Positions 287 to 21,364 of a stretch of 39,299 bases of DNA are shown piece after piece. Origin of the DNA: an uncultured archaeon (GTDB taxonomy: Archaea; Micrarchaeota; Micrarchaeia; CABMEP01); assembly GCA_902385155.1 (NCBI GenBank), contig CABMEP010000035.1, positions 1-39,299 of the forward strand. Reading direction: 5' to 3'. The position numbers and the translations under genes were made by a program. The notes under the pieces are model-generated. The model was not told the DNA's origin. It saw only the letters and a program-made list of their open reading frames with translations, and made no database searches. Each line of letters begins with the position of its first letter. Position 1 is the first letter of the stretch.

Positions 287-335
287 TCCTACTCCATCCT
301 AAACTTTTTATACGTATTGCATTTCCGGAGTAGGA
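287..335. promoter_or_regulatory. 9-bp inverted repeat (TCCTACTCC / GGAGTAGGA) flanking the probable cdc48 TATA box
   Basis: Arms at 287-295 and 327-335 enclose an AT-rich TATAAAAAG (minus strand, ~305-313). Confidence 0.4.
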
Positions 336-341
336 TTAGAG

Positions 342-450
342 CGAGCCCGAAGGGAATTTCGGCGCTGCCGGAATCGTCTTCCGACCGCACGTTCGAACCC
401 TCAGCCTCCTGGTCCGAAGCCAGGCGCTCTATCCGTTGAGCTACGGGCCC
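342..450 (-). tRNA. tRNA-Arg(TCG) with 36-nt intron at position 59/60 (356-391)
   Basis: Acceptor GGGCCCG/CGGGCTC, anticodon arm CTGG-CTTCGGA-CCAG, T-stem GAGGG/CCCTT. The insert forms a strict BHB: central helix TTCG/CGAA, bulges AA^C and AT^T, inner helix GTGC/GCGC. Removal restores T-loop TTCGAAT. Confidence 0.92.
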
Positions 451-522
451 ACTGCCGGATGAATAAGGAAAGAGAGGAATAAAAGGTGAACTGAAGCGAC
501 GGCGTAAAAGAAAAATAAAAAA

Positions 523-613
523 TAGCGGGGAGTGGATTTGAACCACCGATCTCCGGGTTATGAGCCCGGCGGGCACTCCAAGCTACCCTTAGGGAACATC
601 TGTTTACCCCGCT
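523..613 (-). tRNA. Initiator tRNA-Met(CAT) with 16-nt intron at position 9/10 (589-604)
   Basis: A1-U72 pair, acceptor AGCGGGG/CCCCGCT, three G-C pairs next to the CAT loop. Removing AACAGATGTTCCCTAA gives a canonical 75-nt iMet cloverleaf. Junctions fit a BHB-like motif (GGGG/CCCT, bulges TA^A and AA^G). Confidence 0.85.
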
Positions 614-1464
614 AGCTTGGATATTACAAAACGCCTGAATTGAATAGGCGTTAACACTTTAATACCCTTCCGTAAGTAGCGTGTGTATTCTTCAGCGCGG
701 TTTCTTGTTGTTACAACAATCATTTTGACATCAGGGATCTCGTTTTTGATAAGATAGAACTTTTTGTTCAATCTATTTGATTTTTGTTCCGGATCATCCC
801 AACACGTCGCTTCAATAAGAAGATTTGGAGCCTGTTTTATAGAAAAATCTACAGATACATATCCATTTCTATTTTTAACCTTGAAAATCCGTTCATATTT
901 GTAATCAAATCCAGCCACCTGGAGTACAGATGCAACATAAACTTCAAGCCAATTGTACATTTTTTCTCCATTCGGACCGATCGATCCTCTATGGATTTGT
1001 TTTAATGCGCTCAGAGACCATCTCCTTCTTGAATTTACGGATGCGCCATGAATTCCACGTTGTCGTATTGCAAGTGTGGCACCGCCCAATTTGCATTTAG
1101 CACACCATCGATTATAGAATTCATCTCCATTAAGGAGTTCCAAAATCTTTTGTTCGCCTTTTATCGAACCGTGTTTCGCCTTTTTGATCCATTCTTTTCT
1201 AAAGTTAGGGTCTTTCATTAATTCCTTAAGTCGCGTTTTGACACGTATACTCATTTTTGAAGTGTATCTCAATCGATATGTCGGATCCTTTAATTTTTGT
1301 ATGATTGCCTTCGCACCATTTGAACGAATTGTTTTGAGATATGATGTGTTTCCTAACTCTGTCCTTAAACTTTCTTTTAGTTCCCTAAGTTTCATATGGT
1401 GTTTTATAGATAAATCAGCCAAGCGTTGTCCTGACTGGAACTCTTCAACAAGTTTACTGAACAT
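604..1464 (-). CDS. Putative site-specific endonuclease: basic N-terminal region plus C-terminal PD-(D/E)XK/Vsr-like domain
   Basis: 286 aa, AT-rich, Lys/Arg-rich. C-terminal pattern LE...FDYKYE...VDF...LLIEAT resembles restriction-fold nucleases. Own TATA box at 1494-1487. Last codons and stop overlap the tRNA-iMet 5' exon. Confidence 0.7.
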   Translation of the reverse strand: MFSKLVEEFQSGQRLADLSIKHHMKLRELKESLRTELGNTSYLKTIRSNGAKAIIQKLKDPTYRLRYTSKMSIRVKTRLKELMKDPNFRKEWIKKAKHGSIKGEQKILELLNGDEFYNRWCAKCKLGGATLAIRQRGIHGASVNSRRRWSLSALKQIHRGSIGPNGEKMYNWLEVYVASVLQVAGFDYKYERIFKVKNRNGYVSVDFSIKQAPNLLIEATCWDDPEQKSNRLNKKFYLIKNEIPDVKMIVVTTRNRAEEYTRYLRKGIKVLTPIQFRRFVISKLAG

Positions 1465-1486: not shown

Positions 1487-1494
1487 TATATAAA
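1487..1494 (-). promoter_or_regulatory. TATA box of the nuclease gene (probably leaderless transcript)
   Basis: TTTATATA ends 22 nt upstream of the ATG at 1464. Confidence 0.6.
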
Positions 1495-1521
1495 CATTTC
1501 TCTAGTTCATTTCGTGTGATT

Positions 1522-1535
1522 TACCCTACCCTGCT
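1522..1535 (-). pseudogene. Orphan copy of tRNA-iMet nt 1-14 (AGCAGGGTAGGGTA), or alternative 5' exon
   Basis: 13/14 identical to the spliced tRNA 5' end AGCGGGGTAGGGTA. Lies ~23 nt downstream of a TATA-like element (1566-1558). Confidence 0.7.
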
Positions 1536-1557
1536 ACGAGATGTATATTCCAGCTAT

Positions 1558-1566
1558 CTTTATATT
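1558..1566. promoter_or_regulatory. Probable bidirectional TATA element serving the tRNA 5' fragment (-) and the pilin-like operon (+)
   Basis: CTTTATATT lies ~22-23 nt from both the GTG at 1588 and the tRNA fragment start at 1535. Confidence 0.5.
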
Positions 1567-1587
1567 CCCTCGCCGTTTCGGAGTATC

Positions 1588-2325
1588 GTGCGCGGGGTGC
1601 TTTCGTTCCTCTATGCGTTCGCTGCGATCGCTTCGATCCTTTTCGTCTATTCGTACTATTCCTCGCTGAAAGGGGACATCGACTCGACGGAGCATCACCT
1701 CCTTGTCCTCGAAGACAGGCACGCGCGCGAAATGGAGCTGAAGCGGGCCGTCACGGACACGATACGGCACTCCGTGAATATGACTCTGAGTCTAGATCCG
1801 AACGCGGATCCCGAAGCGATACAGGAACGCATCGGCAATGACCTATCCTTGCTCAGGGGCGTCGAGGGCGCGGAGGGATACAAGAATTACTCATACGGCG
1901 ATTTCCGCAGCAGGTTCACTGTCAGATTCTGGTGCGGCAATCCATCGAAAGAAGAGCTTGATCGGGTAGCCGAGACCCATGACTGGTCCAAAAAGAGCGA
2001 TTACATCTGCGAAGGATGCCATTATCTCGACGAGGAGTTCGCGTACATTACCTTCGATTCGGATGGGAACGTCATCGGCGGCGGCACAAGGAACCTGTGC
2101 GCCCAGCTGCTCTCTGTCGATAAGGGCAACAAGATCATCTCGGTCTCCGCGTCCCAGCTGAAAAACGCGATTCTCCGCCACCGTATAATGATCGCGGATC
2201 CGCTTTCCGAAAGCGTCCTGCTTTCCGGCGATTCAATGTTCGGAGTGATGGTCTACGACAGCGCTGAAGACGTGTCATCGGTCGCAGTCATCCCGATGTC
2301 TACTGAAATCAGGTGGATTGGATGA
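1588..2325 (+). CDS. Class III signal peptide-like (pilin-associated) protein
   Basis: Restarted at GTG 1588: MRG|VLSFLYAFAAIASILF hydrophobic helix. First of four tightly coupled similar genes. Confidence 0.65.
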   Translation: MRGVLSFLYAFAAIASILFVYSYYSSLKGDIDSTEHHLLVLEDRHAREMELKRAVTDTIRHSVNMTLSLDPNADPEAIQERIGNDLSLLRGVEGAEGYKNYSYGDFRSRFTVRFWCGNPSKEELDRVAETHDWSKKSDYICEGCHYLDEEFAYITFDSDGNVIGGGTRNLCAQLLSVDKGNKIISVSASQLKNAILRHRIMIADPLSESVLLSGDSMFGVMVYDSAEDVSSVAVIPMSTEIRWIG

Positions 2326-3797: not shown

Positions 3798-3917
3798 GCC
3801 AGAGTAGCTCAGCTTGGTTAGAGCGCCAGACTCATAAGTTTCACTCAAGACCCTGTGGAAACAGAACGGTGGAATTAAGAAATCTGGAGGCCGAGTGTTC
3901 AAATCCCTCCTCTGGCA
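3798..3917 (+). tRNA. Elongator tRNA-Met(CAT) with canonical 37/38 intron (3837-3881, 45 nt)
   Basis: Acceptor GCCAGAG/CTCTGGC, anticodon stem CCAGA/TCTGG, BHB with inner helix GTTTCACT/GGTGGAAT. Met versus Ile2 identity is inferred from the general sequence pattern. Confidence 0.88.
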
Positions 3918-8670: not shown

Positions 8671-8772
8671 GTGGGGATGGCAGAGCCTGGTCAAATGCGC
8701 GGGACTTAAGACCTGCACGGGAGGACATCCCGTGCCCTAGCGGCTTCGTGGGTTCAAATCCCACTCCCCACA
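8671..8772 (+). tRNA. tRNA-Leu(TAA) with 16-nt canonical intron (8711-8726)
   Basis: Acceptor GTGGGGA/TCCCCAC, anticodon stem CGGGA/TCCCG, long variable arm, T-arm GTGGG-TTCAAAT-CCCAC. TTTTAAA TATA upstream. Confidence 0.9.
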
Positions 8773-13335: not shown

Positions 13336-13848
13336 TCAGGGCACGATGCGGCTGAGCTTGATGTAGGTGACGTCGCCTTCGGTGTCCACGATCGCCCATA
13401 TCATCTTCTTCTTCACGGAGTGGGATATCCTGATCGCGCCCGCGATCTCGTAGACCGACGTCTTCATCTCTTCCGGCACCGGCTGGACGAGCAGTTCGGA
13501 ATGCCCCTCTCCGACGCGTATGCCCTTGTCGTACACGCGGAAGTAGGTGCCGTACTTGAGCCCCGTCCTGACCACGTATCCCTTGGAGCGGAGGTCGCGG
13601 TAGACCGCGTATTTCATGTCCAGTTCCTTCTCCGCCTTCTTGAACGCCAAGAACAACGAGTCGAATGCCATCCGTTTCTTGCCGTCTAGGACCGATATCC
13701 GCTTCTTCTCCACGAGGTAGAGCGCCTCGACCGGAGCGAGCAGCAGCCGCTCTCCGACCTCCTCTCCGAATCCCCTTTCCTTCAGCATCTTCGCCGCAGC
13801 CGGCTCGTTCTCCATCACTTTATTACCTGTGAATATCGCCATGTCCAC
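13336..13848 (-). CDS. endA: tRNA splicing endonuclease, single-unit catalytic subunit
   Basis: EALYL, VYRDLRSKGYVVRTGLKYGTYFRVY, HS and SVKK motifs carry the Tyr/His/Lys triad. The start may be 13842. Confidence 0.93.
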   Translation of the reverse strand: MDMAIFTGNKVMENEPAAAKMLKERGFGEEVGERLLLAPVEALYLVEKKRISVLDGKKRMAFDSLFLAFKKAEKELDMKYAVYRDLRSKGYVVRTGLKYGTYFRVYDKGIRVGEGHSELLVQPVPEEMKTSVYEIAGAIRISHSVKKKMIWAIVDTEGDVTYIKLSRIVP

Positions 13849-21248: not shown

Positions 21249-21364
21249 TGGGCCGGCGGAGATTTGAACTCCGGACCTACAGTTGACCTAAGCCTGTCCT
21301 GATATTAGTGTATCAGAACGCGCCATATAAGACTGCCGCTCTGACCAGGCTGAGCTACCGGCCC
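21249..21364 (-). tRNA. tRNA-Ile(TAT) with canonical 37/38 intron (21285-21325, 41 nt)
   Basis: Acceptor GGGCCGG/CCGGCCC, anticodon stem GCAGT/ACTGT, loop CT-TAT-A^A. BHB central helix CTTA/TAGG with bulges TA^T and TC^A. Confidence 0.88.

Follow-up and report, generated by a model that had tools for sequence, protein, structure and literature searches.

A locus in the genome of an uncultured archaeon of the Micrarchaeota bears on the open question of how archaeal tRNA genes gain endonuclease-spliced introns, and it hints at a route. The window, by which we mean the whole stretch of 39,299 nt that was analysed (GenBank assembly GCA_902385155.1, contig CABMEP010000035.1, forward strand), carries on its minus strand an initiator tRNA-Met (tRNA-iMet) gene at positions 523..613, the 5′ end of which overlaps the 3′ end of an open reading frame (ORF, 604..1464) with a predicted nuclease fold. 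A first-pass annotation, made from the letters of the window, had proposed that the tRNA gene contains a 16-nt intron between tRNA positions 9 and 10, and that the bulge-helix-bulge (BHB) splice motif of this intron is completed by a leader encoded inside the protein-coding gene. Comparison with related loci supports this structural observation well and, as far as sequence can tell, the locus preserves stages of intron gain borne by an element. With a probability of about 70%, we read 613-523(-) as a working single-copy tRNA-iMet gene with a leader-assisted 16-nt intron at 9/10, borne by a nuclease-gene insert in an older tRNA gene.

The interrupted initiator tRNA gene and its splice motif

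The tRNA gene was read directly from the sequence. Its acceptor strands, AGCGGGG and CCCCGCT, generate an A1:U72 pair, the anticodon CAT lies in the loop CTCATAA, the anticodon stem is closed by three consecutive G:C pairs, and the T arm is normal; CCA is not encoded. A T-run follows the gene, and this T-rich tract (505..522, minus strand), directly 3′ of the discriminator base, is a likely transcription terminator. In archaea, initiator tRNA-Met is marked by the combination of A1:U72, a CAU anticodon and three G:C pairs closing the anticodon stem, and the gene is assigned as an initiator on these sequence features. Exon 1 spans 613-605 and exon 2 spans 588-523, and the exons match uninterrupted homologs. 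The gene was missed by ARAGORN, run with or without its intron mode, and the match to the Rfam tRNA model is partial (531-589, 33.8 bits, model positions 9-63); the leader-assisted, interrupted design accounts for the failure of standard tRNA finders on such genes. The genome assembly (965 kb, 67 contigs, 57% GC), the named relatives of which are all Candidatus Micrarchaeota, is 82.7% complete, and no second tRNA combining CAT with A1:U72 occurs among its 43 tRNA matches.

The 16-nt intron occupies 589..604 on the minus strand, as seen in the sequence and in an alignment with 49 other 9/10 inserts; cut sites one base to the left (590-605) are equally possible because the spliced product is identical. 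Excision of 604-589 yields the junction AGCGGGGTA-GGGTAG. Five relatives of the same family, several with introns elsewhere, carry this sequence uninterrupted, as do 66 of the 401 genomes that were sampled across the phylum, which confirms the proposed intron. An intron in this position had been described as very unusual. The description holds within the family, where none of the five relatives has a 9/10 insert, but not within the phylum, since the 9/10 insert is widespread in Micrarchaeota.

The two strands at 621-613 (TCCAAGCTA) and 585-577 (TAGCTTGGA), read on the minus strand, are exact reverse complements of 9 bp. The first consists of the leader segment TCCAAGCT (614..621), which doubles as the ORF codons ..S K L, followed by A1 (613) of the tRNA. 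Its partner is part of the exon-side 3′ strand (577..587), to which tRNA nt 11 (G587) and nt 13-20 (585-577) contribute. In register with the leader helix are a G612/G586 mismatch, a C611:G587 pair, a central helix formed by GGGG (G4-G7, 607..610) and the intron sequence CCCT (591..594) with one G-U pair, the 3′ bulge AAG (590-588), and TAA (606-604) on the 5′ side. All of the motif components named in the first-pass annotation are therefore present in the sequence. The TAA, which comprises tRNA nt 8-9 and the first intron base, is also the stop codon of the ORF, and translation of the ORF confirms that the stop overlaps the 5′ splice site, as had been claimed.

As in archaeal tRNA introns of the BHB type, a 4-bp central helix is present between exon and intron strands. 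An exon-side flanking helix of at least 2 bp arises only through the leader, which supplies the 9 bp that are joined by C3:G11; completion of the motif by a segment that lies within a protein-coding gene was thus correctly recognized. The 3′ bulge has three nucleotides. On the 5′ side, RNAfold prefers a 2-nt bulge with a 3-bp inner helix (A-U/A-U/C-G), or a loop, over a 3-nt TAA bulge, so that the motif belongs to the relaxed class (hBH-like or bulge-helix-loop (BHL)-like) and not to the strict BHB class, in agreement with the weak inner helix noted earlier.

Recurrence, covariation and folding

A search pattern that allowed 5-35 extra bases after T8 detected the 9/10 insert in 19 genome-contig and 24 metagenome loci. 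Together with eight loci found beside homologs of the ORF, these yielded 50 distinct sequences in one alignment, to which the following values refer. The central helix is paired in 197 of 200 cells (98.5%). The whole named structure is 74.0% paired, and this value falls to 28.9-57.1% if the partners are shifted against each other by 1-3 columns. Two-sided changes occur between leader and D-loop at -5:17a (AU 18, UA 10, GU 7), -4:17 (GC 12, GU 6, AU 3) and -3:16 (GC 28, AU 2, GU 2), so that leader and D-loop covary among homologous loci as the leader-pairing proposal would have it. Neither the observed percentage of pairing nor the covariation score was reached by any of 500 shuffles, a statistic that is inflated by related sequences. 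A stricter control set 41 insert loci against 33 distinct uninterrupted initiator loci. The mean number of in-register leader:D-loop pairs is 5.17 of 8 in the former and 2.61 of 8, with a maximum of 6, in the latter, and at least six such pairs are formed by 22 of the 41 and by 1 of the 33, respectively. With so little pairing in the uninterrupted loci, chance is an unlikely source of the leader complementarity. The insert loci that pair poorly have mostly introns of 28-34 nt with strong inner helices, and many of them use a leader segment farther upstream (ACTCC/GGAGT); by free folding, no leader helix was found in L008, L024, L026, L030 and L040.

A pair of loci, L019 and L073, amounts to a natural experiment that links the leader extension to the intron. 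The two are near-identical in exon 2, in a second canonical intron and on both sides, through the upstream gene and the 3′ flank; the differences, a 10-nt leader extension and a 14-nt 9/10 intron, occur together. Another variant is seen in L088, L090, L092 and L094 (genomes G170, G124, G299 and G177), where the first 7-8 bases of the tRNA (AGCGGGG..) are present a second time, at 1-25 nt upstream of the functional A1, in a copy that appears to encode the ..AG tail of the ORF. This copy could be a spare acceptor strand, to which the 3′ end would be paired for as long as the real strand is engaged in the splice motif.

Folding of 630-523 with RNAfold, which had been suggested as a check, returned a minimum-energy structure that keeps the acceptor stem, not the splice fold. 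After this result, explicit conformers and nascent segments were scored. For 634-520 the splice fold has an energy of -33.3 kcal/mol, the cloverleaf with insert -31.5 kcal/mol and the overall minimum -37.2 kcal/mol, and the minimum for 634-523 (-37.0 kcal/mol) contains the splice fold. Moreover, the splice fold is the minimum-energy structure for all nascent 5′ segments of 58 to 108 nt, and the proposed non-cloverleaf, splice-competent form is upheld to this extent. According to these models, the splice fold and the cloverleaf hardly differ in energy, and of the two the splice fold forms earlier during transcription.

The nuclease-fold gene and its proposed insertion site

The 286-amino-acid (aa) product of the ORF (604..1464, minus strand) is predicted to comprise N-terminal helical modules, which are helix-turn-helix-like, and a C-terminal restriction-endonuclease-like PD-(D/E)xK domain. 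The GC content of the ORF is 31-43% in a genome of 57%. No above-cut-off match was obtained in Pfam, NCBIfam or PHROGs, and a match to GerD (26.7 bits, cut-off 29.5) was discarded as a helical-repeat artefact. The family nevertheless has 123 representatives at E ≤ 1e-3, 26 of these at E ≤ 1e-30, with many fragments among them, compared with four proteins only in a word-based homolog search. Seven sequences with 34-65% identity to the window ORF share 63 invariant columns, which include E174, D206, E218 and K228; residue 220 is T, not K. The structure model (pLDDT 80.2, with ten-residue blocks of 79-93 over residues 171-280) contains the alpha-beta-beta-beta-alpha-beta core. The top Foldseek rows are all nucleases of the PD-(D/E)xK fold, at E 2.6e-3 and weaker, and the VIA Z values are middling: 9.5 for Can2, 8.9 for AF1548, 8.7 for PspGI and 7.7 for the catalytic domain of the homing endonuclease I-Bth0305I. 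When 30 relatives were scanned against Pfam, the only matches were weak ones to Phage_endo_I and EcoRII-C, in distant members, and one distant relative joins a similar module to an HNH domain. The ORF thus represents a real, conserved family for which modelling indicates a restriction-endonuclease-like fold. Intact copies all end in ..(L/I/T)-A-G-stop, with the stop on T8-A9. The nuclease domain also has remote homologs in L096 and L097 (G267:C1 and G218:C3; E 7e-10 and 1.5e-7), where they immediately precede another tRNA gene, GCCTCGGTAGCTCAGTC..., with a D-loop insert of ~32 nt; the habit of a nuclease gene standing beside an interrupted tRNA gene may extend beyond tRNA-iMet.

The distribution of the ORF is patchy and tied to the interrupted tRNA gene. 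In the family the gene order is CDC48 - tRNA-Arg - tRNA-iMet - orf269, and the ORF lies between the tRNA and orf269 only in the window, in L031 and, as a 54-codon stump, in L033; it was not found in five syntenic family relatives. Of 44 insert loci, 10 of which have less than 800 nt of upstream sequence, eight were found by tblastn to have the ORF upstream of the tRNA, as opposed to none of 36 uninterrupted loci. The ORF occurs in 14 of the 401 genomes, and these 14 are spread over at least six families; in 10 of 11 strong ORF loci besides that of the window a 9/10-interrupted tRNA-iMet gene directly follows. Copies are broken in L021/L045 and L095/L098, and L033 retains the last 54 codons, all at one homologous site.

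Just upstream of the ORF, 1521..1535 on the minus strand (AGCAGGGTAGGGTAA) resembles an uninterrupted tRNA 5′ end, nt 1-14/15, with two mismatches. It is preceded by a TATA box (AATATAAA, 1559..1566), the centre of which lies 27.5 nt upstream of the first base of the relic, the spacing of an uninterrupted gene. Equivalent 5′ fragments occur upstream of the ORF in L031 (15 nt), L016/L085 (18 nt) and L032 (19 nt). Altogether, old fragments behind a TATA box at native spacing were found in 5 of 55 insert loci (4 distinct) and in none of 36 uninterrupted loci. A 14-mer with at most one mismatch occurs upstream of the 4 distinct insert loci, where ~0.01 would be expected in the 68 kb scanned, and in none of the 36 controls. 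A 9-nt resemblance in L050 was too short to be counted. Accordingly, nt 1-14/19 of the tRNA are present at both ends of the insert, interrupted by the intron in the functional copy and uninterrupted in the old one, and the insert boundary falls in the D-loop (nt 14-19) next to the leader-complementary stretch.

The insert is ~0.93 kb long and the nuclease-fold ORF is its only gene; no integrase family match and no tyrosine recombinase were found in it. In the simplest reading, this low-GC element would have entered an older tRNA-iMet gene in the D-loop region. Its 3′ end would supply a replacement promoter, leader, exon 1 and the 9/10 intron, and the older promoter and the first 14-15 nt would survive upstream, a context that the first-pass annotation had missed. 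The alternative of one giant ORF-containing intron, extending from the old fragment to the 3′ splice site, was rejected, since the 3′-strand bases beside the central helix are not complementary to its start and since the old fragment in the window has a G4-to-A change.

Two further features of the insert's left side were noted. The annotated GTG start (1516) of orf269 (1516-2325, plus strand) lies inside the relic, such that the first ~7 codons would be the reverse complement of tRNA sequence, and the N-terminal 11-25 residues do not align with those of family relatives lacking the insert. In L087, L088, L090 and L091, all of one family, a ~13-nt motif (GCGGAAATGAACC-like) precedes the TATA box of the ORF, ~60-90 nt upstream of the ORF start, and is a possible marker of the left insert end for this lineage.

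Promoter, processing order and competing readings

A TATA-like box, TATTAAA (658..664, minus strand), lies inside the ORF with its centre ~48 nt upstream of A1. It is the proposed tRNA promoter and would give a leader of ~20 nt. TATA-like boxes were scored by a simple pattern and only loci with a box were counted. In insert loci the centre of the nearest box has a median distance of 43.5 nt upstream of A1 (interquartile range 39.5-47.5; 34 of 50 loci scored), and in uninterrupted loci a median of 29.5 nt (27.5-33; 28 of 32 scored), i.e., the box is ~14 nt farther upstream when the insert is present. Archaeal transcription usually starts ~26 nt after the centre of the TATA box. By this rule, uninterrupted genes would have almost no leader, and interrupted genes one of ~17 nt, just enough for the pairing segment. 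Remnants of the ORF 3′ end that include the box persist in L012, L029, L035, L038, L043, L046 and L048. Retention of the box at the same distance where the ORF is truncated or gone (L033 and loci of the L012 type) suggests that the tRNA probably has its own promoter. Another TATA-like box (TTTATATA, 1487..1494, minus strand), ~26 nt upstream of the ORF ATG (1464-1462), is a possible promoter of a leaderless nuclease mRNA.

The enzymes required for such a precursor are encoded in the genome. A 423-aa ORF on contig C21 (L082, 784-2055), which encodes a protein of the three-unit type, matches the EndA of ARMAN-2 (PDB 4FZ2) over residues 51-423 with an E value of 8e-124; by sequence, the genome thus encodes a broad-specificity splicing endonuclease of the ARMAN-2 (epsilon-2) type. 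Relaxed, non-canonical introns and the epsilon-2 enzyme are described for Micrarchaeota in the accessible parts of PMC3239211 and PMC12397907, and the former reports that ARMAN-2 EndA cleaves both strict and relaxed motifs in vitro. A second splicing endonuclease gene, for a 170-aa alpha-type protein with both Pfam domains, is located in the window at 13336-13848(-). This genome accordingly has two types; the ARMAN lineages covered in that literature are described with one or the other. RNase P RNA was also found (90.2 bits).

In the probable course of events, the tRNA would be transcribed from the TATA-like box within the upstream ORF with a leader of ~20 nt. In the emerging 5′ part, leader positions -8 to -1 and A1 would pair with D-loop nt 13-20, C3 with G11, and G4-G7 with the intron CCCU. 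The resulting relaxed, bulge-helix-loop-like motif would place both splice sites in short unpaired stretches that flank the 4-bp helix, where the epsilon-2 endonuclease would cleave, and the halves would then be ligated. The acceptor and D stems would form only after splicing, and RNase P would then remove the leader. This order, splicing before RNase P, which the first-pass annotation had also proposed, is implied by the dependence of the helix on the leader. The same set of steps, i.e., RNase P cleavage, 3′ trimming and intron removal, operates in Methanopyrus kandleri, where end trimming was measured to precede intron removal according to the accessible text of PMC3695527; the leader-dependent motif would reverse that sequence of events.

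A number of observations weigh against the reading of a working, leader-assisted tRNA-iMet gene borne by an insert. RNAfold of 630-523 gave a z of only -1.38, with 21 of 200 shuffles folding as well, and the splice fold and the cloverleaf swap within 0.2 kcal/mol between 634-520 and 634-523, so that the full precursor has no clear preference. The control by free folding of 5′ segments discriminates poorly, since at least five leader-D pairs form in 14 of 33 uninterrupted loci as well as in 36 of 42 insert loci; given this weak separation, the in-register counts and the alignment test were relied on instead. The loci are related, and the counts and p-values of those tests overstate their independence. 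The 5′ side lacks a canonical 3-nt bulge closed by a solid helix. About one third of the insert loci (e.g., L008, L026, L030, L040) have a weak in-register leader helix or none. The canonical lysine of the ExK motif is missing in the putative nuclease (E218-A-T220). In L093 (G348:C74), the lone exception to the association, a partial ORF homolog (profile positions 97-281) is followed by a tRNA-iMet without a 9/10 insert, which carries at least three other inserts (D-loop, anticodon stem and variable region). The old 5′ fragment was not detected upstream of the ORF in L050, L086-L092, L094, L021 and L098, and in the window it overlaps the start of orf269 on the other strand. Finally, with 82.7% of the genome at hand, a second initiator tRNA is possible.

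Four competing explanations were weighed. The first-pass annotation had suggested that tRNA maturation strips the stop codon from the nuclease mRNA and so couples tRNA production to down-regulation of the nuclease. In this model the tRNA has to come from the nuclease mRNA, which would lose its stop codon when the splice site is cut or RNase P acts. The coincidence of the ORF stop with T8-A9 and the first intron base, which recurs in L031, L033, L050, L016 and L032, fits this coupling, and no terminator-like T-run was seen between ORF and tRNA, so that read-through transcripts are plausible and would be cut. However, the TATA-like box in the ORF 3′ end is retained in loci where the ORF is truncated or gone (L033, L012, L029, L038, L043, L046, L048), the extra tRNA 5′ copy of L088, L090, L092 and L094 intervenes before the functional A1, and in L090 the reading frame stops at a TGA directly before A1. 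As the box at 664-658 points to a separate promoter, the coupling is doubtful, and nothing in the locus needs it. A different objection concerns the leader:D-loop complementarity, which might be an insertion scar, e.g., an inverted copy of the target, with the central helix and bulges sufficing for splicing. The adjacency of the insert boundary (nt 14-19) to the complementary stretch would be explained in this way, as would the third of insert loci that lack a good in-register helix, and broad-specificity endonucleases are reported in the accessible part of PMC3239211 to accept motifs without one flanking helix. A scar would not be expected to show compensatory changes that track D-loop variation (CCA/tgg, CCT/agg, CTT/aag, T16/a), a promoter ~14 nt farther upstream in insert loci only, or the joint difference in leader and intron between L019 and L073, and without the leader the exon-side helix would be reduced to C3:G11 and A1:U13. 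This possibility is therefore judged unlikely.

The remaining alternatives deny that either the tRNA or the insert is what it seems. The ORF might be an ordinary host gene, for repair or restriction, packed against the tRNA, with the old fragment a chance resemblance in orf269. In favour of this view are the compactness of these genomes, the overlap of the fragment with the annotated orf269 start, and several ORF-bearing loci in which no fragment was detected. Such a gene would hardly have a GC content of 31-43% in a 57% GC genome, be absent from five syntenic family relatives and occur patchily, with broken and truncated copies, in 14 of 401 genomes of at least six families; in addition, the 14-mer match in 4 distinct insert loci, against ~0.01 expected and none in 36 controls, comes each time with a TATA box at native spacing. 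An ordinary host gene is consequently quite unlikely. That the tRNA is a decaying copy, in which the 16 nt are a mere insertion and the working initiator lies in the unassembled 17%, is very improbable: the 82.7% completeness, the failure of ARAGORN and the partial Rfam match would allow it, but the exons show perfect conservation when compared with uninterrupted homologs, 50 distinct loci have the interrupted design in common, with the central helix 98.5% paired, and no other initiator is present among the 43 tRNA matches.

The 9/10 intron may tentatively be regarded as the self-protection device of a homing-type nuclease element, a possibility to which we give somewhat less than even odds. 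The nuclease would cut the uninterrupted tRNA-iMet gene in the region of nt 9-19, and repair would copy in the nuclease gene together with the replacement promoter, leader and 5′ exon. The short intron would break the DNA target, and an intact tRNA would be regained from the RNA by leader-assisted splicing. Once the element was fixed, decay of its nuclease gene would leave an orphan intron with a long leader, as in L033, L012 and L019. If true, this would give archaeal tRNA genes a concrete and repeatable way of gaining endonuclease-spliced introns.

Relation to known systems and neighbouring genes

The closest match to the splice motif is found among relaxed BHB and BHL introns that are cut by the epsilon-2 EndA of ARMAN-2 or the alpha2-beta2 EndA of Crenarchaeota (PMC3239211, PMC3488258, PMC12397907), which in the accessible parts of these reports are likewise short, located outside 37/38 and provided with a 4-bp central helix. 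ARMAN-2 belongs to the same phylum and its enzyme is a close homolog of the one found here. The ARMAN-2 introns described there lie at 37/38, 53/54 and 59/60 and form their helices from exon and intron, in contrast to the present motif, the exon-side helix of which uses the untrimmed 5′ leader. Leader pairing builds the BHB in the split and permuted tRNAs of Nanoarchaeum equitans, Caldivirga, Thermofilum pendens and red algae (PMC4090602, PMC4033280, PMC3218864). As far as these sources are accessible, they share with the window locus the use of a leader or trailer outside the mature tRNA, and hence the need to splice before that part undergoes end maturation. Their leaders, however, pair with the trailer of another transcript or with the other end of the precursor and are cut off at the motif, whereas here the gene is contiguous and the leader would pair with the D-loop of the same molecule as a scaffold only, to be removed later. 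Comparative evidence suggests that the splice signal of a contiguous tRNA gene can include the 5′ leader as an indispensable structural element. In the accessible literature, no leader-built motif in a contiguous tRNA gene, no 9/10 intron and no member of this nuclease family was found; the supplementary tRNA tables of the ARMAN-2 work may list such an intron.

For the insertion itself, the nearest precedent is the tRNA-Thr(GGU) gene of Caldiarchaeum subterraneum, from which a model of intron gain by integration of a mobile element was derived (Sugahara et al. 2012, PMC3293823). The available text of that report describes a 5′ tRNA fragment, an insert with one ORF of ~270 aa, and a reconstituted tRNA with an extra intron in its new 5′ part, and its authors propose that the intron protects the element. 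It concerns one locus in one population; the intron lies at 24/25, the prediction for the ORF does not go beyond DNA binding or recombination, and in that text no leader-built motif is described; the nuclease-fold family here recurs at tRNA-iMet across many Micrarchaeota lineages. A model previously argued, in that available text, from a single Caldiarchaeum locus thus becomes testable, because the window and ~50 relatives show all stages together: empty genes with a very short predicted leader; a nuclease gene with a long leader and an intron inside the remains of an older copy; and loci in which the nuclease gene is truncated or gone and the leader and intron remain.

The free-standing homing endonucleases of phage T4, Seg and Mob, provide a second parallel. 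Their spread is termed "intronless homing", and SegB is located in a tRNA gene cluster, according to the accessible parts of PMC2790892 and PMC13096335. Both systems appear to have a solitary nuclease gene in or next to a conserved target gene, and to share patchy occurrence, degenerate copies and the modular combination of DNA-binding and nuclease domains. The T4 enzymes are of the GIY-YIG or HNH type and rely on sequence polymorphism for immunity. The present family differs in its predicted PD-(D/E)xK-like fold and its cellular archaeal host and, by analogy, in having an RNA-spliced intron as the candidate immunity device.

Unusual introns are not confined to the initiator gene. The tRNA-Arg(TCG) gene directly downstream of tRNA-iMet (window ~330-450, minus strand) has an apparent insert of ~35 nt in the T-loop near 59/60; its Rfam match is limited to 394-450 (30.2 bits), and it was missed by ARAGORN. 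Introns are present in many other tRNA genes of the genome, including those at 3798-3917(+), 8671-8772(+) and 21249-21364(-) and genes on contigs C59, C60 and C51, and several of these introns are non-canonical. The non-canonical positions include the D-loop of a tRNA-Gly on C60 and the anticodon stem of tRNAs on C59 and C60, and ~17 of the 43 tRNA matches are longer than 90 nt or matched only in part.

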